Source: Candidatus Woesearchaeota archaeon (lineage in GTDB: Archaea; Nanobdellota; Nanobdellia; Pacearchaeales; JAHJTO01). From it: DNA of 64,000 bases. The stretch spans positions 9,186-73,185 of the forward strand of contig CAZIKY010000003.1 of the NCBI GenBank assembly GCA_964540065.1, in the 5' to 3' direction. How positions within the stretch are numbered: the stretch's first letter is position 1; every line of letters starts with the position of its first letter. Shown here one piece after another: positions 5,801 to 63,199 of this stretch. Position numbers and translations under genes: made by a program. Under the pieces are notes generated by a model that saw only the letters and a list, made by a program, of their open reading frames with translations, had not been told where the DNA came from and searched no databases.

Positions 5801-6508
5801 TTAGGCGCTTCCCGTGCATAATTCCCCTCCATCTACCTGTAAAAGGGCTCCATTAATGTAGCTCGCTTCATCAGAGGCCAAAAAGGCAGCTGTGGCGGCT
5901 ATTTCTTCTGGTTTTCCTATGCGGCCCATAGGATTGCTCTTGCCATATTCTTCCCTAGCTTCTTTTCTGGACCCTACTGTGCTGCTAAGCATGTTTGTGT
6001 CTATTGGACCAGGCATTATGGCATTGACCCTTACCCCTAAAGGAGCATTTTCCTGTGCAAGAATTTTTGTGAGCATGTTTATTCCAGCCTTAGAGATACA
6101 ATATGCAGCTGCATCTTTAGCAGGAACCACACTTATAATTGAAGAAATATTGATGATATTCCCTTTGCTCTTTTTGATAAGTGGAACAGCATGTTTGGAC
6201 ATTAAATAGGCCCCGCGAAGGTTAACATTTATCGTTTTGTCAAATTTCTCTGTTGATCCGCCGATAGGTTCCATGAACAGAATACCTGCGTTATTAACCA
6301 AGATATCAAGCTTCTTTATCTTTCCAATGGCTTTCTTAATTTCCTCTTCTTTAGAAACATCGACTTTATGAAATTCGACTTTGTAATCCGGTTTATTTCT
6401 TCCAAAAACAATTACCTGGGCGCCTTCTTTGATGAACCTCTGAGCTATTGCTCTCCCAATACCGCTAGAAGCTCCAGTGATTAAAGCCACCTTATTTTTT
6501 AATAGCAT
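5801..6508 (-). CDS. SDR family NAD(P)-dependent oxidoreductase
   Basis: TGASSGIG, NNAG, YCISK, PGPIDT; start taken at MLLKNK. Confidence 0.93.
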   Translation of the reverse strand: MLLKNKVALITGASSGIGRAIAQRFIKEGAQVIVFGRNKPDYKVEFHKVDVSKEEEIKKAIGKIKKLDILVNNAGILFMEPIGGSTEKFDKTINVNLRGAYLMSKHAVPLIKKSKGNIINISSIISVVPAKDAAAYCISKAGINMLTKILAQENAPLGVRVNAIMPGPIDTNMLSSTVGSRKEAREEYGKSNPMGRIGKPEEIAATAAFLASDEASYINGALLQVDGGELCTGSA

Positions 6509-6547
6509 AACATACTCAAGCAATCTTAGCTTATAAATTAATTGCTG

Positions 6548-11917: not shown

Positions 11918-13573
11918 TTATCTCTTCTTTTTCACTTTCTTCATCACAAGGAAATAATAAGCTGCTCCAGCAGCTGCAACAACCAGAATAACTGCGATTA
12001 ATGGCCAAAGGAGGCTGATTTTTTCAGGAGCGGGCTGCTCCTGCACATCTACAATAACAGGTATCTCTGCGATCTTCTGTCCGTTCTGCTTTATCTCCAA
12101 CTTTACTTCTTTTTCTCCGGGTTCCGCATCTTCCTTAACATAAACTTGGGGAACTAAAACTTCTTTTCCTGTTTCTAGATCGGCAACAGTTTTAACTTCC
12201 ACTCGGCCCCAATCAGTATTTCCCCCAATAACTTCTGCGCTGAATCCTTCTTGAGGTTTTCCAGTAGTGACTGTTCTTTTAAAAGTTGAAGCGTCAATCA
12301 TTGGCATAATAGAATATGTTCCGGTATGAACTCCAATACCCTCAAAGACTGCCTGCTCTCCTCCCCCGCTAACAATGTAAACTTTGTTATCGCTTAATTT
12401 TTGTATGCTGAATTCTTCCGGAGCTTCTTCAAAGAATTGTGCATTATAGTATCCATTTCCACTCACAACTGGGGCTTCAAATGCGGGTTTCTCCCCCTCG
12501 GCCCTTCCAAAAAGAGGCCTAAAAGCTCTTTTCTTCGCAAGAATTGCTTCAGCTTCTTCCTGCGGGATAGCCTTTTCAGCAGCTTCCGCAGCGGCAATCT
12601 TTTCTTGAGGAATAAGAAGTGCAGGTTTGTTGCTTATACCTAGCTGAGTAGCCACTTTTTCAAATGTGGCTCCTTCAGATTTTAATGAGATGCTTTTGAA
12701 TTCAGAGATTTTCAACGTAGATTCTTTCACGTTTTGCTTGGCATTCAATTCCATCAAAACCTTATAGGCTTCATTGAATTCATTTACAGCAGATTTATAT
12801 TCTTCATCAATCAAACCCCAGCTTTCAGCTAGTTTTAAGTTAGTGTTCACTTGTTCCAAGCATCTTGCATTCTTTGAGCAGAATGCAGGGTTGCAAACAT
12901 TAATGCTTGGATTTCCCCTACAGATGCGTTTAGCTGCGATATCTGATTTTAATATACTTTCAAAGAGTGAGGAAATTTTTTCCTCTGCTTCTTTCTTAAA
13001 TAATTGCTCCTGAGCACTTAAAGCGGTTTTGGGAGTTTCTTCTGATGTTGAAACAGTAGTAGTTGTAGAACCAATAGAACACTGGCCCTTGCCGGCATCT
13101 GTTCTCCTTCCGTTTATGGTTGTGCTTCCGCTGCATCTATATTTTTCTCCGCTTTCGTCTTCAAAATCCCCTTCATAATCCCAATCATAAGTTGAAGTGA
13201 AGGAGGAGCAATCAGCGGTGAAAATTATTTTGGCTCCCGGGATGGTGGTGTATCCGCCTTCATCCCTGAAGGGTCCGACTCTTCCTATAGAAAGAGTGTT
13301 TCCGCTAAGCATGCCCTGGGTAGATTGTTTATGAACGGTCGCTCTTGCACTTACTCCATTCTCTATTCTGATAGAAACGGTTTCAGTATACTTATCCACC
13401 TCGTCTTCCCCGCAAGCCCTCAGATCATCTGCAACGCTTACAGACCAAGTTGTTGTCCCAGTAGAACTTCCCCATATAGACTGGGCAGAGACAAAAGGAA
13501 ACGAGAAAAATACTAAGAAAATTAAAGTAAAAGTCAAAAATTTAATCTTAAAAGACAATTTATCCTCCCTCAT
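11918..13573 (-). CDS. Secreted cell-surface protein with C-terminal TM anchor
   Basis: Start at ATG 13573 (ATGA overlap with upstream stop), signal peptide ending VSA/Q, C-terminal WPLIAVILVVAAAGAAYYFLVMKKVKKKR. Confidence 0.8.
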   Translation of the reverse strand: MREDKLSFKIKFLTFTLIFLVFFSFPFVSAQSIWGSSTGTTTWSVSVADDLRACGEDEVDKYTETVSIRIENGVSARATVHKQSTQGMLSGNTLSIGRVGPFRDEGGYTTIPGAKIIFTADCSSFTSTYDWDYEGDFEDESGEKYRCSGSTTINGRRTDAGKGQCSIGSTTTTVSTSEETPKTALSAQEQLFKKEAEEKISSLFESILKSDIAAKRICRGNPSINVCNPAFCSKNARCLEQVNTNLKLAESWGLIDEEYKSAVNEFNEAYKVLMELNAKQNVKESTLKISEFKSISLKSEGATFEKVATQLGISNKPALLIPQEKIAAAEAAEKAIPQEEAEAILAKKRAFRPLFGRAEGEKPAFEAPVVSGNGYYNAQFFEEAPEEFSIQKLSDNKVYIVSGGGEQAVFEGIGVHTGTYSIMPMIDASTFKRTVTTGKPQEGFSAEVIGGNTDWGRVEVKTVADLETGKEVLVPQVYVKEDAEPGEKEVKLEIKQNGQKIAEIPVIVDVQEQPAPEKISLLWPLIAVILVVAAAGAAYYFLVMKKVKKKR

Positions 13574-14814
13574 TTTTTCTTTTTCATGAAAAAGAAGTAA
13601 TATCCTGCTCCAGCTGCAAGGACTGCCACCAATAAGACCCAGATCAAAGCAGAGGCTCCTTTTTCCCCAGAAACGACTGCAAAATAACCTGTAACTTTGT
13701 CCGTGTAAGCGACAAATTCGCATTCTGAGCTTTCACAGCTTACAAGCTGAGTTGGAACAGAAACCCAAGTATTTGAAGTTTCATCATATCTGAAAAGTTT
13801 TGTGTTCTCCGAATTATCTACTGCATAACCGGTTAAACCAAAACCCGTAATCTCGAGAGGCTTATCCGTAAAGCTGAAGAACCCTTCGGCATCTTTAACC
13901 TCTGCTGCCCTTACACCAGGAGGAGGAACAATCTTTAATGAAAATGCGTTTTTTGGCAGGCCCTGGGACTCAAGAAGAGAATAATCCGGGATTCCAAGTG
14001 CTTCACCTGCTCCGCTCAGCTCATCTTTCAAAGCCGAGGGATCAAAAACTGCTCCTTCAAGATATTTATTGCTAATTGGAACTCCGGGCACGACAGTTAT
14101 GTCTTTCAAAGGCAAATCTCCCTGGAAGTTTACCTTACTTGGAGTTCCGGCAGGACCATCTTTCAGACGAGCTTCTCTATTTGTCCAAATCTCGTTGAAC
14201 CTTTCTCTTGTGAGTTCTGGAGCCAACTGTTTTGCATTAGCAAAAATTTCATCTAATTTGGCAGGGTTTGGGCTCGCTGTAACTTCGGTTAAAGCTTTTG
14301 AAGAGAGTCTTTGTCTAAGATTTTGCGCTCGATTATCCTGCAAAGCCAGTTGATTGTATGCTTCAGCCAACAATTCTTCCCGAGTCAAAGGCTTTCTAAC
14401 ATCTGCCTCTTCAACCTCTTCAGGCTCCCCAATTTCTACGGGTTTGGTTCCTTGTTCCTTTTTAAAATCGTCGTAGGCAAAACTCTGTATTGTCGGACTC
14501 CTTTCGAAGTAGCTTGTGGCTTCATCTAAGTCTTTGCATATTCCCGTATAATCCCCGTGCTGCTGGAAGCATTCTTCAAAATGCTCGTCCCATAATGCCT
14601 TAAGTCTCTGATCAACTGGAGCCGCAGCCCAATAACAATCACCGGTTCCATCAGTTTCTCTAAGACAGTTTAATATAAGGTCATAAGCCTCTTGAATATC
14701 ATCTGCAAATTGTCCTCCTTCCCAAGCATGCTGGGCAGAAACAAGATTAATAGAAACAGACAAAATAGCAATTAGAATTAAAGATAAACCAAGCCGACTA
14801 AAATTTAACCTCAA
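13570..14814 (-). CDS. Secreted cell-surface protein with PGF-pre-PGF-like domain and C-terminal TM anchor
   Basis: TTG start with GGTGA SD, signal peptide ending VSA/Q, WVSVPTQ...YTDKVTGYFAVV, C-terminal WVLLVAVLAAGAGYYFFFMKKKK. Confidence 0.8.
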   Translation of the reverse strand: MRLNFSRLGLSLILIAILSVSINLVSAQHAWEGGQFADDIQEAYDLILNCLRETDGTGDCYWAAAPVDQRLKALWDEHFEECFQQHGDYTGICKDLDEATSYFERSPTIQSFAYDDFKKEQGTKPVEIGEPEEVEEADVRKPLTREELLAEAYNQLALQDNRAQNLRQRLSSKALTEVTASPNPAKLDEIFANAKQLAPELTRERFNEIWTNREARLKDGPAGTPSKVNFQGDLPLKDITVVPGVPISNKYLEGAVFDPSALKDELSGAGEALGIPDYSLLESQGLPKNAFSLKIVPPPGVRAAEVKDAEGFFSFTDKPLEITGFGLTGYAVDNSENTKLFRYDETSNTWVSVPTQLVSCESSECEFVAYTDKVTGYFAVVSGEKGASALIWVLLVAVLAAGAGYYFFFMKKKK

Positions 14815-14977: not shown

Positions 14978-15069
14978 GAAATAGTGTAAAAGTAGCCATA
15001 TTTAAAGCTTCTTATTTGCCCCATTTGAGGCAGGGCAAAGTTTATAAGATTATTTCTATCGGTTAGACT

Positions 15070-16305
15070 ATGAGGAAGCTTACAAAATACGAAAAAGTCT
15101 TCACAAACATAACTAAGAAATATGTAAGACTTTATCCCGAACATTCCTTTAAATTCTACTTCGATGATATCGAGTATCCGGTAATCGGAAAGAGCAAGAA
15201 TGTGGTTTCTGTTAAATTCAAGAAATCTCCTTACCTTTTCAGAAGGATATTCCGGGAAGGCTCGCTTGGCCTCGGAGAAAGCTATTGCGAAGGCCTTATC
15301 GACGTCGCAGATAAAGACTACAAATGGCTTCTTTACATCTTTGTCAGAGCCGCAAATGATGGAAAGCTCATATGGAAGCTCAGCTGGATGGACTTATTCA
15401 GGGTCATGAAGGCAAGGACTGCTGGAAGATTCTTCGCAAGAGAAAGCCAGCATGCAAACATCAACGCCCATTACAGCCTTAGCGATTGGTTTGACAATGA
15501 CGACTACTCAAACCAGTTTTACATGTACTGGCTTGACCATGAAACTTACCAATATTCCTGTGCAAAATGGGATCCTGAAACCAAAGGCCTTGTTGAATCC
15601 GAATTAAATAAGTTCGATTATTACTGCAAACGCCTTGGAATAGACAAAAATTCAAAAGGCAAAACGCTTTTGGACCTTGGATGCGGATGGGGAGGATTCT
15701 CTTATTATGTTGCAGAGAAATACGGCCTCAAAGTTACTGCAATGACACTTTCAACAGCCCAAACAAAATTCATCAAGGATCAGATAAAGAAAAGAAAGCT
15801 TCAGAATAAAATAACCATTCTAAACGAAAATGCCCATAACATGAAAGGGAAGTATGATTACATCGCTTCAATCGGATTGCTTGAGCATATAGATGATTAT
15901 GATGACCTATACAAGAAAGCTTCAAGAGCCTTAAATCCTGGGGGGACAGCATTATTCCATGCAATGTTTAATAAAAATCCATTCTACAAACCGGATCCTT
16001 TCCTTTTGAAATACATTTTCCCTGGAGGAGGAACTCCCAACTTCAAGTCAAATGTAAGGGTCTTCAAAAAATACTTCAAATACGTAGATCCCAAAAGCCT
16101 TCCTCCGCTTTCATATCCAAAAACCCTAGATTGCTGGTACGATCTTTTCTGCAAAAATGAATCTAAGATCAAAAAATTGTTGAAAGAAAAAGGCAAGGTC
16201 AAAAATGTAGATTATGCAACCAGAATCTTCAAGCATTACCTAATGCTTGCTTCAACAGGTTTGGCCGTAAAGGGATATGTTTACAATATTCTTGCTAAAA
16301 ACTAA
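15070..16305 (+). CDS. Cyclopropane-fatty-acyl-phospholipid synthase (Cfa/TmsB)-family SAM methyltransferase
   Basis: LGLGESY, HY..SN.FY..WLD..YQYSCA, LLDLGCGWGG, SIGLLEHI, KYIFPGG. Confidence 0.88.
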   Translation: MRKLTKYEKVFTNITKKYVRLYPEHSFKFYFDDIEYPVIGKSKNVVSVKFKKSPYLFRRIFREGSLGLGESYCEGLIDVADKDYKWLLYIFVRAANDGKLIWKLSWMDLFRVMKARTAGRFFARESQHANINAHYSLSDWFDNDDYSNQFYMYWLDHETYQYSCAKWDPETKGLVESELNKFDYYCKRLGIDKNSKGKTLLDLGCGWGGFSYYVAEKYGLKVTAMTLSTAQTKFIKDQIKKRKLQNKITILNENAHNMKGKYDYIASIGLLEHIDDYDDLYKKASRALNPGGTALFHAMFNKNPFYKPDPFLLKYIFPGGGTPNFKSNVRVFKKYFKYVDPKSLPPLSYPKTLDCWYDLFCKNESKIKKLLKEKGKVKNVDYATRIFKHYLMLASTGLAVKGYVYNILAKN

Positions 16306-16329
16306 TAAGTCGGGTCAAAATTTATTTTC

Positions 16330-17658
16330 ATGGCTACAATAACACTTAAAGAGCATAATCTGAAGAAAGCCCTTCTTCAGAAAGAACTGCAAAAACAAGC
16401 AGGCAATCAAAGCTTAGGGCTCAATAAAAAGACTTCTAATCTTTTCCGGGACAGAAAAGAACCAAAAAAGAAAAAGCTGAATGTCGGGCATTTTAACAGG
16501 GTAATAAATATAGATCCTAAAAACCGAATTGTAGAAACTGAGGGGATGATAACCTACGATGATTTGGTCAAAGAAACCCTTAAGAAAGGTTTCATGCCTG
16601 CAGTCGTCCCTCAACTGAAGACCATAACTATCGGCGGAGCCATTTCAGGCCTCGGAATAGAATCTTCTTCATTCAGAGAAGGCCTCGTGCATGAAGCCGT
16701 AGAAGAGATAGAGGTCCTCTTAAGCGATGGAACCACAGTTGTATGCACCCCAAAGAACAAAAACAAAGACCTGTTCTTGGGCCTTCCGAATTCATATGGC
16801 ACTTTAGGATATGTCTTGAGGCTCAAATCAAAAATAATCCCTGTAAAGAGATTTGTTGAGCTAAACCATCTGAAGTACAGTGATCCGGAGATTTATTTCA
16901 AAGACTTTAAAAGATTCTGCGATGAAAAAAAGCACGATTTTGTTGATGGAGTTATATTCAGCGAAAATGAAATGTACATTACACTGGCAGATTTTATTGA
17001 CAAAGCGCCTTACAAAAGCGACTACAAGCATATGGGCATATATTACAAATCAATAAGAAAAAGGAAAAAAGATTATCTCACAGTCTCTGATTATATCTGG
17101 AGATGGGATCCGGATTGGTTCTGGGGATCAAAAAAATTCGGAATGCAGAACCCTGTTTTGAGGGCAGTTTTCGGAAAACTTATGCTCAGCTCATACTCTT
17201 ACTGGAAAATTATCTCCCTTGCCAAGAAATTTGATCTCGACAAATCAAAAAACAAAGAATCTGTAGTCCAAGATGTCGGAATTCCGATAGAAAAATGCTC
17301 CGAATTCTTAAGGTTCTTCACTAAAAACATCGGGATACTCCCGATTTGGGCGTGCCCATTCAAATCTCCGACTAAAGCCAGATTCACACTGGTGAATACA
17401 GACCATTCAAAGCTTTACATCGACTTCGGATTCTGGGACAGTGTAAAAACTAATAGGGAAGAGGGCTTTTACAACCGTCTTGTTGAAAAGAAAGTGTGGG
17501 AAATGAAGGGCTTGAAATCTCTTTATTCCACTTCGTATTATACTGAAGAGGAATTCTGGAGGATCCATAACAAAAAAAGATATAATTCTTTGAAGAGAAG
17601 GTATGATCCCAATAATAGGCTTAGAAACCTATATGAAAAATGTGTTAAAATGAAATAG
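16330..17658 (+). CDS. FAD-binding oxidoreductase, TmsA/BfaA/Rv3719 (DHCR24-like) family
   Basis: KTSNLFR, VVPQLKTITIGGAISGLGIESSSFR, PNSYGTLGY, DYIWRWDPDWFW, KSLYS. Confidence 0.88.
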   Translation: MATITLKEHNLKKALLQKELQKQAGNQSLGLNKKTSNLFRDRKEPKKKKLNVGHFNRVINIDPKNRIVETEGMITYDDLVKETLKKGFMPAVVPQLKTITIGGAISGLGIESSSFREGLVHEAVEEIEVLLSDGTTVVCTPKNKNKDLFLGLPNSYGTLGYVLRLKSKIIPVKRFVELNHLKYSDPEIYFKDFKRFCDEKKHDFVDGVIFSENEMYITLADFIDKAPYKSDYKHMGIYYKSIRKRKKDYLTVSDYIWRWDPDWFWGSKKFGMQNPVLRAVFGKLMLSSYSYWKIISLAKKFDLDKSKNKESVVQDVGIPIEKCSEFLRFFTKNIGILPIWACPFKSPTKARFTLVNTDHSKLYIDFGFWDSVKTNREEGFYNRLVEKKVWEMKGLKSLYSTSYYTEEEFWRIHNKKRYNSLKRRYDPNNRLRNLYEKCVKMK

Positions 17659-17730
17659 ATTTTATATTTCCTCTAAACATGCCCTGAGCAAACCAACAAA
17701 GCTTATAAACTTCTCAAGAATTTTTGAATC

Positions 17731-18693
17731 ATGAGCGAGTTGTGGACTGAAAAATACAGGCCGAAGGAGTTTTCTGAGCTTTTCGGCCAGGAGGCGATAG
17801 TTTCCAGGGTAGAAGCTTTCGTAAAACAGAAGAATATGCCTCATTTAATGTTCACGGGCCCGGCAGGCACTGGAAAAAGCACTTTGAGCCTAATAACGGT
17901 AAAAAAGCTCTACGGAGACAGCTGGAGATCAAACTACCTCGAGCTTAACGCTTCAGATGAAAGAGGAATTGATGTAGTCAGGGAAAAAATAAAGGGTTTT
18001 GCAAGGACAAGGTCTCTTGACGGATCTTTCAAGATTATTTTTCTTGACGAAGCCGATGCTTTGACCAAAGAGGCGCAGCAGGCCTTGAGAAGGACAATGG
18101 AAATGTTCACTCAAACCTGCAGATTTATCCTTTCGTGCAATTATTCTTCAAAAATAATCGAGCCCATACAAAGCAGATGTGCAGTTTTTAGATTCAGGCA
18201 GCTAGATCAAGAGGCTGTAAATAAAATTGTAAAACATATTGCAGATTCAGAAGGCCTTTCAATAACAGAAGAAATTCCTGAGCTGCTCTTCGATCTGAGC
18301 AGCGGAGACTGCAGAAGGATGATAAATATAATGCAGGCAGCGGCAGTTACAGACAAAAATCTAACAAAAGAGCTTATACTCCAAATAGCCAAGAGCTCAA
18401 AACCCCAAGACATAAAGACAATGTTGGAGGCATCACTAAACGGCAATTTCACTGTTTCAAGAGAATTGATGCTTGATTTGATGCTTGAAAAAAGCATCAA
18501 CGGCATTGAAATGATCAAAAACATCATGGAGGCGATCCCCTCGCTTAAAGTGGATGACAGGATAAAGGTAAAGCTCATAGAAAAATGCGGAGAGGCAGAA
18601 TTCAGGCTAGTAGAAGGAAGCGATGAGTTCATCCAGCTCGAGGCTTTGCTTGCCTCCTTCGTCATGGCCGGCTACAAAAGCAGGCAAGAATAA
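17731..18693 (+). CDS. rfcS: Replication factor C small subunit
   Basis: WTEKYRP, GPAGTGKS, ELNASDERG, DEAD, SRC. Confidence 0.97.
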   Translation: MSELWTEKYRPKEFSELFGQEAIVSRVEAFVKQKNMPHLMFTGPAGTGKSTLSLITVKKLYGDSWRSNYLELNASDERGIDVVREKIKGFARTRSLDGSFKIIFLDEADALTKEAQQALRRTMEMFTQTCRFILSCNYSSKIIEPIQSRCAVFRFRQLDQEAVNKIVKHIADSEGLSITEEIPELLFDLSSGDCRRMINIMQAAAVTDKNLTKELILQIAKSSKPQDIKTMLEASLNGNFTVSRELMLDLMLEKSINGIEMIKNIMEAIPSLKVDDRIKVKLIEKCGEAEFRLVEGSDEFIQLEALLASFVMAGYKSRQE

Positions 18694-18709
18694 AGGATTG
18701 ATCCGGAAA

Positions 18710-19885
18710 ATGATGCTTACTGAAAAACACAGGCCTAAAAAAATTTCAGAGATAGTCGGGCAAAGAGAGGGCATTTCAAAAGTCCTCAGTTTTCTAAAGA
18801 AAAGCGGAAAGGCAGCGATTCTCCACGGCCCGGTAGGTTGCGGGAAAACTTCTGCAGTCCATGCAATCGCTTCAGAGTTAGGATATGAAGTCATAGAGTT
18901 GAATGCCGGAGACCTGAGAAATAGGGAAAGCATAAAGAACATAATCGGAAATGCAGTAGCACAAAAAAGCCTATTCTTTGAAAAGAAAATAATCCTCATA
19001 GATGAAATAGATAATTTGACAAGCCAGGATTATGGGGGATCGGGAGAGATCATATCTGTGATTTCATCAACGAAATATCCAGTGATCATGTGTGCGAATA
19101 AGCCTTTTGAAAAAAAGCTTATGAATCTTAGAAAGAAATGTGAGATGATTGAATTCAAAAGAGTCAGTCCAAGAGAGGTTTATGAGCTCCTCAAAAAAGT
19201 GTGTGCAGAAGAGGGAATCACTGCTGCAGATAACGCCCTCAAGCAGCTTTCATTATTATCTGGGGGAGATTTAAGGGCGGCTTTGAATGATCTTCAAGCT
19301 TCCGGAAAAGAGATAAACGAAGTCGCAGTAAGCAAACGGGAACAGGAAGTCAGTATCTTTAATGCCTTAAGACTGATATTTAAGGGGAGAAGCATCTCGG
19401 CGCTTAATGCCTTAGACAATATTGATGTGGACTTCAGCGAAGCGGTTCTCTGGATAGATGAAAACCTTCCTTCAGAGTATAGAAATAGGGATCTTTTCGA
19501 GGCCTACCAGGCCTTAAGCAAGGCGGATGTTTTCATGAAGAGGATAAGCAGACAGCAGCATTGGCACTTCTTAGTTTATGTTAATGCGATGCTTACTGCA
19601 GGCGTGGCATTATCAAAAAGGAAAGAGAGCAATACTTATGCCAATTACAAAAAATCAGGAAGGCTCCTGAAGCTGTGGATGTCGAACAGCTCCGGAAAGA
19701 GAGCAGTGGCAGAAAAATTCTACAAACATGTGCATTACTCGAGCAAAAAACTATTCAGGGAGCTTAGTTACCTCAAAGTTATATGTATGGATCAAAAAGT
19801 AAAAGATAATCTTGCGAAAGAGTTAAATTTAAATAAGGAAGAAGTGGAACTTCTTTTAGGACCAAATAGAAATCGTTACTTCTAA
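18710..19885 (+). CDS. rfcL: Replication factor C large subunit
   Basis: EKHRPK, GPVGCGKT, ELNAGD, IDEID, WIDEN; start taken at ATG 18710. Confidence 0.92.
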   Translation: MMLTEKHRPKKISEIVGQREGISKVLSFLKKSGKAAILHGPVGCGKTSAVHAIASELGYEVIELNAGDLRNRESIKNIIGNAVAQKSLFFEKKIILIDEIDNLTSQDYGGSGEIISVISSTKYPVIMCANKPFEKKLMNLRKKCEMIEFKRVSPREVYELLKKVCAEEGITAADNALKQLSLLSGGDLRAALNDLQASGKEINEVAVSKREQEVSIFNALRLIFKGRSISALNALDNIDVDFSEAVLWIDENLPSEYRNRDLFEAYQALSKADVFMKRISRQQHWHFLVYVNAMLTAGVALSKRKESNTYANYKKSGRLLKLWMSNSSGKRAVAEKFYKHVHYSSKKLFRELSYLKVICMDQKVKDNLAKELNLNKEEVELLLGPNRNRYF

Positions 19886-33202: not shown

Positions 33203-35152
33203 ATGGCCGAAGCACCAAAACAACAGGAACAGCAGCAGCAGCTGGAGCATATAGATGAGTTCAATATTTTAGTTGGAGCAATAAAAGATTACAACCCGCA
33301 TGCCGACTTGAATCTCATAAGCAAGGCCTTCGAATTTGCTTCAGCAGCGCATAAAGGCCAAAAAAGGGAATCTGGAGAAGATTATATAACTCATCCTATA
33401 GGGGTAGCGCAGATACTTACTGAAATAAAAGTCGATTCCCTAACAATTGCCGGAGCATTGCTTCATGACGTTCTTGAAGATACAAATTCCACAAAAGAAG
33501 AGATGATTAAGGAATTTGGACAGGAAGTCACAGACCTTGTTGAAAGCTTGACAAAGATAGACAAGATACACTTCAAAACAAAAGAAGATTATAGTGCGGA
33601 AAACATAAGGAAAGTAGTTCTCGCAATGTCTAAGGACGTTAGAGTCATCCTGATAAAACTTGCCGACAGACTCCATAACATGCGGACTCTTAAGTCCAAA
33701 CCTGAAAAAGACCGCATAGAGAAATCAAAAGAGACTCTCGAAATTTATGCTCCCATCGCCTACAAACTGGGGATTTACAAGATCAAGGCAGAGCTTGAAG
33801 ATCTTTCAATGAAATTCCTTGAGCCGGAGATCTATCAAGAATTAAAAGAAAAGATAGCAAAGAAAAAAGGCGAAAGAGAAGAAGATGTTGCGATTATAAC
33901 TAACCAAATCACAAATTTGATGGAGTCTAAGGGAATCAAGGCAAGAGTTTTTGGAAGGGCAAAACACTTCTATTCGATTTACAAAAAAATGCTTAAGCAT
34001 AAAGTGGGATTTGATGAAATCTACGACCTTCTTGCAGTAAGGATCATCACCGCCTCAGTAGATGATTGCTATAGGGCTCTGGGAATTATCCATTCAACTT
34101 TCACCCCGATACCTTCATTCTTCGAAGACTACATAGCCACTCCAAAAGCTAACGGATATCAAAGCATCCATACAAAAGTAGTTTACGAAGGAAGGCCACT
34201 CGAAGTTCAGATAAGAACAGTGGATATGCACCACATTGCGGAAGATGGAATAGCAGCCCACTGGAGATACAAAGAGACAGAATATGACAAAAGATTCGAC
34301 AAGAAAATATCATGGCTGAAGCAAATACTTACTTGGAAAAGGGAAGCAAAAAGCGCAAAGGAGTTTATAGAATCCTTAAAAATTGATCTGTTCGAACATG
34401 AAATAGTCGTTCTTACCCCCAAGGGAGATCCCGTTTCTCTCCCGGAAAGTTCTACGCCAATAGATTTTGCGTATCATCTCCACACAGAAATCGGAAACAC
34501 CTGCCAGAAGGCAAAGGTAAACGGAGTCATAGTTTCCTTGGACCATGAATTAAAGTCCGGAGATATAGTTGAGATCTTGACTTCAAAAAACTCTTCTCCA
34601 TCGAGGAACTGGCTTAAATTCGCCAAAACATCATTTGCAAGAGCCGAAATAAGGCAGGCCCTGGATATCAAAGGAGTCCAAAGAGAAGATGATTCAGAGG
34701 ATTTCCTTCTTGCCCAGGAAATTCTAGTCGAGGATCCAAGGATGAAAGAAAGGCTGAGAATTTCCAGATGCTGCAATCCAAGATTTGGTGAAGAAATAAC
34801 TGCCTTTGTCCTTAAAGATGGAAGAATAAGCGTTCATAGGACAAATTGTTCCAACTTAGCCGAGCACAAAGACCTCAAAAGAGTAAATGTAAGCTGGCCT
34901 CCACCCAAAAAAGAGGTTTTAACGCTTGACATCTCTGCCACAGATAGGCTAGGTTTATTGGCTCAGATACTCAACATAATTGCTGAAGCAAGCCTAAACG
35001 TCAAATCGATAAATACTGCTGAAAGAAAGGGTCATTTTAAGATAATGATTAATGTGGAAGCAGACGATTTAAATAAAGCGAAACAATCTGCAGATAGAAT
35101 AAAGAAGATAGCAAGTGTAAGCACAGTCTATCTCCATAAAGAGCAGCATTAA
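33203..35152 (+). CDS. rel: Long bifunctional RelA/SpoT homolog ((p)ppGpp synthetase/hydrolase): HD-SYNTH-TGS-ZFD-ACT
   Basis: HKGQKRESGEDYITHP, LHDVLED, KLADRLHNMRT, GRAKHFYSI, DLLAVR, NGYQSIHT, EVQIRT, AAHWRYK, TGS, CCNP..H..C, DRLGLL. Confidence 0.95.
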   Translation: MAEAPKQQEQQQQLEHIDEFNILVGAIKDYNPHADLNLISKAFEFASAAHKGQKRESGEDYITHPIGVAQILTEIKVDSLTIAGALLHDVLEDTNSTKEEMIKEFGQEVTDLVESLTKIDKIHFKTKEDYSAENIRKVVLAMSKDVRVILIKLADRLHNMRTLKSKPEKDRIEKSKETLEIYAPIAYKLGIYKIKAELEDLSMKFLEPEIYQELKEKIAKKKGEREEDVAIITNQITNLMESKGIKARVFGRAKHFYSIYKKMLKHKVGFDEIYDLLAVRIITASVDDCYRALGIIHSTFTPIPSFFEDYIATPKANGYQSIHTKVVYEGRPLEVQIRTVDMHHIAEDGIAAHWRYKETEYDKRFDKKISWLKQILTWKREAKSAKEFIESLKIDLFEHEIVVLTPKGDPVSLPESSTPIDFAYHLHTEIGNTCQKAKVNGVIVSLDHELKSGDIVEILTSKNSSPSRNWLKFAKTSFARAEIRQALDIKGVQREDDSEDFLLAQEILVEDPRMKERLRISRCCNPRFGEEITAFVLKDGRISVHRTNCSNLAEHKDLKRVNVSWPPPKKEVLTLDISATDRLGLLAQILNIIAEASLNVKSINTAERKGHFKIMINVEADDLNKAKQSADRIKKIASVSTVYLHKEQH

Positions 35153-60811: not shown

Positions 60812-63199
60812 TTACTTGAAAGCAAACCTCAGCAAAGCCCCAATCCCCCCAAGATTCTTGAATTGAACTCCTTCATCTGTCTGAGTTGAAATAAAAATCA
60901 CATCTGTTCCCATGGAGGCTGCGATCTCGCGGAGCTCATCCATCTTAGCTTTGTCAAGTTCTTTGGAAAGATACAATTTATCGGCAGCTCCGGCACTCAG
61001 AGCTTTTTTAACTTCGGCGTAGCCGTAAGCAACTTTGTCTGGATCTTTTCCAAGCGTAGTGAAAAAAGTTTTAAGAACTTCCTTCTCATGGGTTATTTCC
61101 TGTGCAGCAAGAATGTCTTGAGAAAGTTCGACAAGAACATGCAGGCCGTATTCATCAGTATAGCTTATGTCTTTTACTCCGATTATTTTATTCTTTATTG
61201 GGGTGGGGATCTGTCCTTCACTCAAGAAAGATTCCTTCGTTGGTCCGGGCCCGCCGACCAATATCCCTTTAAGCTTTTTCATTTCTGAGAACTGTTCTTT
61301 TACAGCTTCTCCGACTTTTCGGTAAAAAGCTAGGGCAAGTCCCTCGGTTAATCTTTCAAACCTCTGTGCCGAATTATGTACTACAAGTCCGTTAGCAATG
61401 AAGTTATGGTTCTTAGTCTCTATGTCTATGGTAATTTCTTCTCCAAGCTTTTCTATTTTAGAAATTTTTACTGCGATTAAGTTAGAGCCGTAAAACATCT
61501 CAAGCCTTTTTCTTAAGGATTCATCTGATATTTTATCCAAAATTCTCGCCTTGAAAACCTGCTTGCTTAATTGCTTCTTGTTTATAAAAAAATCTGGACA
61601 CATAAACCGGGTAGTATCCAAACCGGAATTTCTGATGATTCTCGCAACTTCCTTGCCGTTTACAACCAATTGCCTTACCTTATTGCGGTTGCTTCTTTTA
61701 GATATCAGTTGATTAATTTTATCTTGCTTTTCAAACGAAGTAAATCCAACCAAATCAAAAAATTTCTTTAAAGATTCAGTATCATCTATAGATACTATAT
61801 ATCTAAGGTTCTTAGAATAAGGATTTCTTTTATTGTCATAAGAGGAAAGAGAGGATATTATCCCCAACCTTAATAATGCTAATTGTAGCTGTCTTACTAG
61901 AACTTCATTGTTCATACTTAGAGATATTCTTCCGCTAGATAAAGAAATAGATCCTTCGGCATCAAACAAGCCAGAAATAAATGAAGCAAGTACTCTATCT
62001 GAAGATTTCAAGATAACTGGCGGGATTTTTTCATTTGAAGTTTTATCCTTTTCAGGGAATACACTCTTAAAGAATTGCGTGACTAATCTGCTATAAATTC
62101 TTAATTGGTGATAATTCTTAGAAGCCCTAAACGAATACTTAACTTCTAAACCAAAAAGGTTCTCCAGTAATAATTTATAACTCTCAGCAACTTCCTTTCT
62201 CTGCTCAAAGAAAGTTAATCTGTCCGTTTCGTGGCCACCATCACCCAAATAATAGCCAAAAACCTTTGCTAACTCAGGAGTTATTTTAGCTGGAAGCACA
62301 ACTTGCTTCATAGTCTTGTGTTCTATCTTGGGCTTAAAGTCTATAATTTGATCTTCTAGTTCTAGGTTTATCTTTTCTGGCATGACCAAGAAATCTCCTT
62401 CTTTTATCTCTGAAAGGGGCTTCTCTTCTATACCGTTTTCAGTTCTAACAAAGAAAGTATGGTCTGCAGAGGATTTTATCTCCATCCGAGGATAAGAAGT
62501 CGTCATCTTGAAAAGAGGTTTCTTATTCTCCCATTTAGCAATAATCGGGGTCTCTTCTATTGTTTCTTTATTAAAGTTCTCGGAAACAATGATCAAAGGG
62601 TTATGAGAATCTTTAATTTGAATTATATCTCCAGAACTTGTCATTAAAAGTGTATCTGGATGAAGACATTGACCGCCGGCCTTCATCTTCCCAGGAACAG
62701 CCGAAGTCATGTGTTTCAGCTTTCTTATGTGTTTTCCTTCAAGCACGCCGATCGTCGCTTCTCTTCTGTCCATAACGATCAATCCATAAACCTCTTGTGT
62801 TTCGAGGAGTTCTTTAAGGGGATCAACGACAAATTTCTGATCGCACCGATAAGTCTTCATATTAATAGGGCTTGGTGGCTCGATGCTCCAGAGCTTTATG
62901 TCGGGCTTGCCTTCATCTTTGCTTATGTTGCCGCAGAAAACTGCGAGCCCATTCTTTGGGGTCTGTTTGAACTGTCTTAGGTGCCTTGAGATCTTTCCGA
63001 GAGCTTCGATAACATTTTCTCTGGTGGATTTACTCTTAATATTTGAAGCAGTTCCCGCTTCAGAATCTACCTGCTTAGCCGATAGAATGATGCTGTATCC
63101 TGCAGGAACATAAACTGTAATTAGTTCAGTATGGCGCCCCCTATAAGAATCGAGCTCTTCTATGAGCCTTTCAAGTTGCATCCTTTCTTCATCTTCCAT
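60812..63199 (-). CDS. prf1: Peptide chain release factor aRF1, intein-containing precursor (795 aa; about 363 aa spliced)
   Basis: TELITVY, TASNIKS, YRCD, VPGKMKAGGQ|intein|SAQRFER, GILVGGPG.TK, GGIGALLRF. Confidence 0.96.
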   Translation of the reverse strand: MEDEERMQLERLIEELDSYRGRHTELITVYVPAGYSIILSAKQVDSEAGTASNIKSKSTRENVIEALGKISRHLRQFKQTPKNGLAVFCGNISKDEGKPDIKLWSIEPPSPINMKTYRCDQKFVVDPLKELLETQEVYGLIVMDRREATIGVLEGKHIRKLKHMTSAVPGKMKAGGQCLHPDTLLMTSSGDIIQIKDSHNPLIIVSENFNKETIEETPIIAKWENKKPLFKMTTSYPRMEIKSSADHTFFVRTENGIEEKPLSEIKEGDFLVMPEKINLELEDQIIDFKPKIEHKTMKQVVLPAKITPELAKVFGYYLGDGGHETDRLTFFEQRKEVAESYKLLLENLFGLEVKYSFRASKNYHQLRIYSRLVTQFFKSVFPEKDKTSNEKIPPVILKSSDRVLASFISGLFDAEGSISLSSGRISLSMNNEVLVRQLQLALLRLGIISSLSSYDNKRNPYSKNLRYIVSIDDTESLKKFFDLVGFTSFEKQDKINQLISKRSNRNKVRQLVVNGKEVARIIRNSGLDTTRFMCPDFFINKKQLSKQVFKARILDKISDESLRKRLEMFYGSNLIAVKISKIEKLGEEITIDIETKNHNFIANGLVVHNSAQRFERLTEGLALAFYRKVGEAVKEQFSEMKKLKGILVGGPGPTKESFLSEGQIPTPIKNKIIGVKDISYTDEYGLHVLVELSQDILAAQEITHEKEVLKTFFTTLGKDPDKVAYGYAEVKKALSAGAADKLYLSKELDKAKMDELREIAASMGTDVIFISTQTDEGVQFKNLGGIGALLRFAFK
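61373..62668 (-). mobile_element. Intein with LAGLIDADG homing endonuclease (432 aa) inserted between GGQ and Ser of aRF1
   Basis: N-terminal CLHPDT, block B SADH, LAGLIDADG-like FGYYLGDG and ISGLFDAEG, block F/G IDIET..NFIANGLVVHN, +1 Ser. Confidence 0.95.

Follow-up and report, generated by a model that had tools for sequence, protein, structure and literature searches.

A BfaA-type flavoprotein gene and a methyltransferase gene of a separate CFAS subfamily form a candidate lipid-methylating pair in a DPANN archaeon

The 64-kb stretch of contig CAZIKY010000003.1 from a Candidatus Woesearchaeota archaeon (assembly GCA_964540065.1; the whole stretch is called the window here) carries two neighbouring genes on the same strand (Table 1). 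The first encodes an S-adenosylmethionine (SAM)-dependent methyltransferase of the cyclopropane fatty-acid synthase (CFAS) family and the second an FAD-dependent oxidoreductase of the BfaA/TmsA family. With moderate confidence, the pair is read here as a bicistronic lipid-tailoring module of bacterial origin, the products of which would methylenate and then reduce unsaturated fatty-acyl chains of membrane lipids. In the first step, the methyltransferase would add the one-carbon unit of SAM to a cis double bond in a chain of an intact membrane lipid, and the carbocation intermediate would resolve to an exomethylene group. The BfaA-type flavoenzyme would then reduce this group to a methyl branch, leaving a saturated chain with a methyl branch in its middle part. 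The likeliest substrate would be a bacterial-type phospholipid with a monounsaturated fatty-acyl chain, either taken from a bacterial partner or made by the archaeon with bacterial-type genes. Since both enzymes would act on lipids already assembled, with SAM and a reductant as the only further requirements, such a module would suit organisms that are unable to build or desaturate lipids of their own. Family membership, conserved active-site residues, conserved pairing and archaeal residence are observed features of the two genes, from which we infer product, substrate and physiological role.

The chemistry of the best studied pair of this kind is established in actinomycetes, where the bfaAB genes direct the 10-methylstearate pathway (Machida 2017, PMC5660069; Blitzblau 2021, PMC7791843). 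BfaB methylenates the delta-9 acyl chain on a phospholipid to a 10-methylene chain in a SAM-dependent reaction, and BfaA reduces the 10-methylene to a 10-methyl chain in an FAD/NADPH-dependent one (PMC5660069, PMC7791843). The initial annotation of the window, which was made from the letters and translations, invoked the formation of 10-methylstearate by this two-gene pair, and its account agrees with the published one (PMC5660069, PMC7791843).

The reductase is a BfaA-family protein by every sequence test applied. It aligns over its full length with the characterised BfaA of Thermomonospora curvata (43% identity, 457 columns, E = 7e-141) and is 38–45% identical to the BfaA proteins of R. opacus, M. 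smegmatis, M. tuberculosis (Rv3719) and C. glyciniphilum; four of the five characterised actinobacterial enzymes fall at 42–45% and the fifth at 38% (the BfaA references are from Additional file 3 of Blitzblau et al. 2021, PMC7791843). The initial annotation had called the protein a TmsA-like FAD reductase on the strength of four segments ascribed to Rv3719/TmsA. The full-length family membership bears this out, and all four segments are present: KTSNLFR (residues 34–40), VVPQLKTITIGG (92–103), PNSYGTLGY (153–161) and WRWDPDWFW (257–265) align with KPTSNLFR, VVPQLRTITLGG, PNSYGTLGY and WRWDTDWFW of Rv3719, the sequence of which is printed in the same file. The protein carries the BfaA-family motifs TSNLFR, VVPQLKTIT.GG, PNSYG.LGY and WRWD.DWFW, and when aligned with 204 other members of the family it has the consensus residue at all 41 columns that are invariant in those 204 and at 88 of the 89 columns that are at least 95% conserved.

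Pfam places an FAD_binding_4 domain in the reductase (PF01565, 2e-14), and its AlphaFold model (pLDDT 83.8, pTM 0.84) has the two-domain fold of VAO/PCMH flavoenzymes. Cytokinin dehydrogenases and DprE1 are its matches among PDB sequences and also, in a Foldseek search with the model, the closest solved structures (TM 0.60–0.67). No NCBIfam model covers the family; the best match in that collection, DprE1, reaches 51 bits where the cut-off lies at 500. The family is large: 7,999 of the 8,000 scored candidates match at E 1e-5 or better, and 565 clusters at 50% identity pass E 1e-30. Five matches of ~890–916 aa (P0391, P0403, P0414, P0418 and P0420) contain two tandem BfaA-like FAD_binding_4 units. 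These ~900-aa proteins were considered as Rosetta-stone fusions of methyltransferase and reductase and were rejected as such, being internal duplications of the reductase.

The methyltransferase is assigned to an uncharacterised CFAS subfamily that occurs in DPANN archaea, the Candidate Phyla Radiation (CPR) and Nitrospira, and it is not a BfaB/TmsB orthologue. It matches the Pfam family CMAS (PF02353, 1e-47, 163 bits against a gathering score of 27), and among solved structures it comes closest to E. coli Cfa (PDB 6bqc, 1e-34, over residues 52–363). The SAM motif reads LLDLGCGWGG, and residues C164, E272, H297, M299 and Y349 align with the bicarbonate-site residues C139, E239, H266, I268 and Y317 of E. 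coli Cfa, five positions that are also kept in BfaB and TmpB. On the NCBIfam Cfa equivalog NF008686 the protein scores 171.8 bits, below the curated cut-off of 400. The initial annotation had equated it with TmsB. This equation does not stand: identity to T. curvata BfaB is 34% over 186 aa only (1e-27), and 29–34% across ~185 aa for the BfaB references overall, whereas the TmpB proteins of Thiohalospira (28%, 338 aa, 1e-47) and Marinobacter (28%, 355 aa, 1e-44) and E. coli Cfa (29%, 344 aa, 2e-38) score better. In a neighbour-joining (NJ) tree of 206 CFAS-family sequences (Kimura distances, as in all trees here), the methyltransferase and its 50–63%-identical homologues form a separate clade of 125 members with a stem length of 0.66, distinct from the BfaB, the Marinobacter-TmpB-like and the Cfa/Desulfobacter-TmpB-like clades.

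Within this subfamily, called window-type below, the methyltransferase agrees with the other members at 84 of the 88 columns that are at least 95% conserved. The subfamily has two insertions, one of nine residues, SDWF(D/E)N(D/E)(D/E)x, and a C-terminal one of eight; its named members come from Patescibacteria/Parcubacteria and Nitrospira. More broadly, the closest homologues of both proteins of the pair (50–63% identity) include ones from CPR, Chlamydiae, Acidobacteria and Burkholderiales; most metagenomic homologues have no taxonomy. In Nitrospira sp. GCA_005116835.1 (L087:4892–7248), a fatty-acid desaturase gene (PF00487) lies immediately 5' of a window-type methyltransferase gene, the product of which is 52% identical to that of the window; no reductase gene adjoins it at this locus. 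Nitrospira is known for 11-methyl-hexadecanoic acid (PMC5516240), and the desaturase and the methyltransferase are a candidate gene pair for the 16:1 and 11-methyl-16:0 marker lipids of this genus. Archaeal contigs from TARA Oceans (L088:6001–7236 and L089) carry a window-type methyltransferase (58% identity) beside an L7Ae-S28e-L24e-NDK-aEF2-aEF1alpha cluster.

The association of the two enzymes extends far beyond the window. Among the best 80 genome loci from a scan of species-representative genomes, capped at 600 stretches, the reductase is paired in 71 with a CFAS-family methyltransferase encoded on the same strand within 750 bp, a frequency that argues against chance adjacency. The 80 loci come from about ten phyla, and the genome of the window itself is not among them. 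Groups represented in the scan are Nanoarchaeota, Saccharibacteria/Patescibacteria, Acidobacteria, Chlamydiae, Verrucomicrobia, Nitrospiraceae, Syntrophales, many Beta- and Gammaproteobacteria, and Actinobacteria. The adjacent arrangement spans Acidobacteria, Proteobacteria, Chlamydiae, Verrucomicrobia, Nitrospirae, CPR and Actinobacteria, so that the distribution of the module in bacteria is much wider than work on actinomycetes would suggest. In 23 loci, all actinobacterial, the partner is of the BfaB type and follows the reductase. A methyltransferase of the Marinobacter-TmpB type precedes the reductase in 30 loci; the Cfa type (Cfa/D. curvatus-TmpB-type) precedes it in 15 and follows it in 3. 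The window-type methyltransferase is found in 0 of the 80 species-representative loci, and its pairing with the reductase was found on four independent metagenomic contigs (the window, L082, L092 and L093). In these arrangements, the reductase is the constant element and the methyltransferase subfamily the exchangeable one, which is best explained if all the subfamilies supply an exomethylene product to the reductase.

Several of these loci deserve description in their own right. In the 30 Beta- and Gammaproteobacteria loci (within L004–L069, e.g. L006:4883–7311), a Marinobacter-TmpB-like methyltransferase is joined to a BfaA-type reductase, unlike in the published tmpBA. In Acidobacteriaceae, Bryobacteraceae and Solibacter (L003, L005, L009, L019, L020 and L028), a Cfa-type methyltransferase is followed by a BfaA-type reductase; these groups are known for unusual methylated membrane-spanning lipids. 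A locus in bacterial context (GCA_054034115.1, L084:6890–10478) has the reductase between two Cfa-type methyltransferases. In Nanoarchaeota GCA_034723595.1, a gene for a GDSL-family lipase/acylhydrolase lies ~2 kb 3' of the pair (L085:11108–11725 and L086:5020–5637) and one for a serine hydrolase farther on; together they may be lipid-harvesting equipment.

A fatty-acyl substrate is likely for the window pair because the archaeal proteins share 50–63% identity with homologues of bacteria whose lipids contain fatty acids and keep the family-conserved residues, because in Nitrospira a gene of the same methyltransferase subfamily adjoins a fatty-acid desaturase gene, and because related DPANN archaea are proposed associates of bacteria: Pace- and Woesearchaeota have been proposed to be episymbionts of bacteria, and some have bacterial fatty-acid genes (PMC8204110, PMC10936187). 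The archaeon probably handles bacterial-type lipids. Other observations weigh against methylenation and reduction of such chains. Characterised BfaA activity comes from actinobacterial members only, and sequence cannot separate cyclopropane-forming from methylene-forming CFAS enzymes. Pfam scans of the ~50 open reading frames (ORFs) of the 64-kb window found no gene for the synthesis or uptake of fatty acids or phospholipids; a short-chain dehydrogenase/reductase gene at 5801–6523 is generic, and its product scores below the FabG cut-offs. In the marine archaeal relative from TARA Oceans (L088/L089), no reductase adjoins the methyltransferase. The branch position and regiochemistry of the product are not predictable from the present evidence.

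The TARA and Nitrospira genes, in which the methyltransferase stands without an adjoining reductase, would also fit an ordinary cyclopropane fatty-acid synthase, with the neighbouring flavoprotein of the window serving some other or unrelated function. The active site has the residues of E. coli Cfa, and Woesearchaeota genes have been annotated as cfa in print (PMC10936187). We nevertheless consider this explanation unlikely. The adjacency in 71 of the 80 loci holds whichever methyltransferase subfamily is involved, the reductase shares 43% identity with an enzyme for which reduction of 10-methylene fatty acids has been demonstrated (PMC7791843), and the score of the methyltransferase on the curated Cfa model is far below its cut-off.

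A different substrate has also to be weighed, namely the isoprenoid double bonds of unsaturated archaeol precursors (digeranylgeranylglyceryl phosphate) or of polyprenyl/dolichyl phosphate, the chains of which would receive extra methyl groups. The logic would parallel that of a sterol C24-methyltransferase followed by a DWF1/DHCR24-type reductase, and we take the BfaA family to resemble these sterol side-chain reductases (DHCR24/DWF1), which act on isoprenoid-type olefins. In favour of this substrate are the archaeal nature of the host, the presence of a cis-prenyltransferase gene in the window and of another 3.5 kb from the pair in Nanoarchaeota L085, and the fact that the solved folds nearest to the reductase, those of cytokinin dehydrogenase and DprE1, bind prenylated substrates. 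Against this stand the 50–63% identity of the archaeal proteins to homologues in bacteria that have fatty-acid lipids, with conserved residues kept and no sign of a change of substrate, and the link of the same methyltransferase subfamily to the Nitrospira desaturase. CFAS enzymes are generally known to act on cis-disubstituted acyl olefins, not on trisubstituted isoprenoid ones. The Pfam scans found no archaeal ether-lipid biosynthesis gene among the ~50 ORFs of the window, and there is no archaeal lipid-synthesis gene in four other archaeal loci either. Isoprenoid chains are therefore an improbable substrate, and fatty-acyl chains remain the preferred one. Of the two readings offered by the initial annotation, remodelling of acquired acyl lipids and methylation of unsaturated isoprenoid chains, the former is thus favoured.

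The archaeal identity of the host, given by the initial annotation as DPANN, agrees with the marker genes of the window. It encodes the small and large subunits of replication factor C (RFC), a family-B DNA polymerase, FEN1, CDC48, TYW2, an aRF1 with an intein, a Rad51/RadA-family recombinase homologue, a deoxyhypusine synthase and an intron-bearing tRNA. The named best relatives of the deoxyhypusine synthase (55–59% identity) are all from DPANN archaea, namely Pacearchaeota, Nanoarchaeia, Aenigmarchaeota, Woesearchaeota and Diapherotrites, and closer, unnamed relatives reach up to 81%.

The pair is also native to its contig in assembly and composition. A 13.3-kb contig of an independent Logan assembly (run SRR5011273) has the same gene order on both sides (methyltransferase, reductase, RFC). 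The GC content of the two genes is 0.384–0.387 against a window background of 0.405 ± 0.018, GC3 is within the range of the window, and codon-usage correlations are r = 0.79 and 0.84, with a background mean of 0.835 and a minimum of 0.65. These data, together with the archaeal-looking promoter signals, make chimerism or contamination, named in the initial annotation as grounds for discarding its proposal, very unlikely; the transfer is old. A bacterial (e.g. CPR) fragment mis-assembled or mis-binned into the archaeal contig, or a recent transfer in decay, is scarcely credible even for gene families that are overwhelmingly bacterial, since the junctions on both sides recur in the independent assembly, composition and codon usage lie within the background, both reading frames are intact with family-conserved residues present, and homologous pairs stand among archaeal genes on four other contigs.

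In the reductase tree, the actinobacterial BfaA proteins form a clade with 100% NJ bootstrap, and the window reductase lies outside it. The label "actinobacterial-type", which the initial annotation had given to the pair, is therefore withdrawn: the gene order is reversed as well, and the module occurs in many bacterial phyla. The window reductase groups with P0002 and P0003 (92%) within a clade of 12 members (92%). All four members of this clade with classifiable neighbourhoods, the window included, have archaeal neighbours, which comprise LSM, S8e, TFIIB, tRNA-intron endonuclease, Alba, diphthamide synthase, an intein-bearing aIF5B and L35Ae. Of two further members, P0117 (L092) has no clear domain markers in its surroundings, and P0003 (L093) is on a contig too short for its neighbours to be classified. 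Two members of the clade pair with a Cfa-type rather than a window-type methyltransferase. A second archaeal clade (P0012, P0010, P0038 and L001; 100%) is annotated as Nanoarchaeota, and one of its members has the archaeal neighbours S6e, eIF2-gamma and TBP. The two archaeal clades are joined in 0 of 100 bootstraps, which could reflect two transfers or merely a lack of resolution. Because the internal branches of the NJ tree are very short outside the named clades, no bacterial donor can be named. The module is bacterial in origin, was acquired long ago and is now resident in a DPANN archaeon.

The layout of the pair and its surroundings fits a single transcript. The co-orientation and the 24-nt gap given by the initial annotation are confirmed, and the two genes are probably co-transcribed. 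In orthologous pairs the spacing is 5 nt (L082) or 47 nt (L093), and in L092 the genes overlap. The TATA-like box TTTATAAG, with a purine-rich GCAAAG 5' of it, may be an archaeal promoter from which a leaderless or short-leader bicistronic transcript would start, in a genome that is 60% A+T. AT-rich boxes ~25–35 nt 5' of the orthologous methyltransferase gene are also seen in L082 and L093. A second TATA-like box, GCTTATAAAC, lies ~27 nt ahead of the start of the RFC small-subunit gene; together with the T-rich tract ATTTTATATTT it suggests that the pair is a transcription unit of its own. Rfam finds no RNA elements in or near the pair.

Table 1. Features of the methyltransferase–reductase pair (positions in the window)
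Feature	Position	Strand	Basis or remark
Putative promoter, TATA-like box TTTATAAG	15041..15048	+	Sequence reading; 29 nt 5' of the methyltransferase ATG
Methyltransferase, CFAS family, distinct window-type subfamily, 411 aa	15070..16305	+	Pfam CMAS, E. coli Cfa 6bqc, SAM motif
Intergenic spacer, 24 nt	16306..16329	+	Between the methyltransferase and reductase genes
BfaA/TmsA-family FAD-dependent oxidoreductase, predicted exomethylene reductase, 442 aa	16330..17658	+	Homology to BfaA, FAD_binding_4
Spacer 3' of the pair	17659..17730	+	T-rich tract ATTTTATATTT after the reductase stop; TATA-like box GCTTATAAAC

Directly upstream of the pair and on the opposite strand, two ORFs (11918–13723 and 13570–14814) encode large proteins without a Pfam match. 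Both begin with a signal-like segment and end in a hydrophobic helix with a lysine-rich tail behind it, and they are probably surface proteins. The two ORFs overlap by ~150 nt, and the start of the first is probably farther downstream. On the other side, the longest ORF of the RFC large subunit (18623–19885, + strand) overlaps the small-subunit gene by 71 nt; an independent gene call in L081 gives a protein of 391 aa, so that the true start is probably near 18710. Farther along the window, a long RelA/SpoT homologue of 649 aa (33203–35152, + strand; HD, RelA_SpoT, TGS and ACT domains; TIGR00691 690 bits against a cut-off of 499) is a bacterial-type (p)ppGpp synthetase/hydrolase with native GC content in a DPANN contig. 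In the aRF1 gene (60812–63199, − strand), eRF1 domains 1–3 are interrupted by the intein, which has a LAGLIDADG homing-endonuclease domain. A 138-nt tRNA match in Rfam (1944–2081, + strand), missed by ARAGORN, fits an intron-containing archaeal tRNA.

If the fatty-acyl reading is right, the predicted product of DPANN genes annotated as cfa would shift from cyclopropane to mid-chain methyl-branched chains. The pair would also provide an assayable marker by which DPANN cells with fatty-acyl lipids, carried or processed, could be recognised, which touches on the lipid divide and on the question of bacterial hosts for Pace- and Woesearchaeota-like archaea. The module with the BfaA-type reductase is not a speciality of actinomycetes; the CFAS methyltransferases in it belong to at least four subfamilies, of which one is uncharacterised. 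Its spread could explain mid-chain methyl fatty-acid biomarkers without assigned genes, such as 11-methyl-16:0 in Nitrospira, and tailoring of finished lipids with only SAM and NADPH would fit lipid-scavenging, genome-reduced DPANN, CPR and Chlamydiae. Should isoprenoid chains prove to be the substrate after all, prokaryotes would have in this pair a counterpart to the C24-methylation of sterols and the DWF1 reduction that follows it, and extra-methylated archaeal lipids could arise by a new route that does not involve radical SAM enzymes.

Among known systems, the window pair is closest to bfaAB (= TmsA/TmsB; Rv3719/Rv3720). Both consist of adjacent, co-oriented genes for a CFAS-family SAM methyltransferase and an FAD_binding_4 flavoprotein (PMC5660069, PMC7791843); the flavoproteins are homologous over their full length (38–45%) with the same signature motifs, and the methyltransferases share the bicarbonate-site residues. 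The window pair differs in its order, methyltransferase then reductase, as against reductase then BfaB in all 23 actinobacterial loci (PMC5660069), and in its 24-nt gap, where bfaAB has a 4-bp overlap. Its methyltransferase falls into a separate clade (34% over 186 aa), its reductase lies outside the actinobacterial clade, and its host is a DPANN archaeon.

The TmpB/TmpA operon for ten-methyl-palmitate in Desulfobacter and Marinobacter (PMC7791843) has the same order of methyltransferase then reductase, and the window methyltransferase scores better on Marinobacter and Thiohalospira TmpB (E 1e-45 to 1e-48) than on BfaB, although identity to TmpB is only 28–30%. The second enzyme is different: TmpA belongs to another flavoprotein family, of the Rossmann type with an N-terminal GxGxxG, and is non-homologous to BfaA (PMC7791843), whereas the partner in the window is BfaA-type. 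The published TmpA was inactive in heterologous hosts (PMC7791843). With E. coli Cfa, an enzyme that acts on intact phospholipids, the window methyltransferase shares the fold, the arrangement of domains with a lipid-binding domain at the N-terminus (aligned over 52–363), and the SAM and bicarbonate-site residues. It differs from Cfa in its 29% identity, in the nine-residue and eight-residue C-terminal insertions, in its score below the NCBIfam cut-off and in its coupling to a reductase, from which a methyl product would be expected instead of a cyclopropane.

The nearest precedent in archaea is the set of cfa genes in five Woesearchaeota metagenome-assembled genomes from oxygen-deficient zones, reported as new for archaea (Zhang et al. 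2024, PMC10936187) and repeated in a 2025 Black Sea study (PMC11868695). There too, a CFAS-family gene in DPANN is read as a sign of bacterial-type lipid modification. In that work, however, cyclopropane lipids are inferred, and neither report mentions a BfaA-type partner; in the module described here this partner is present and is conserved in at least two archaeal clades. Among the papers searched, none linking BfaA/B homologues or the reductase partner to archaea or CPR was found. The presence of cfa in DPANN is thus already published (PMC10936187), and what is added here is the occurrence there of a BfaA-type reductase together with an uncharacterised CFAS subfamily.

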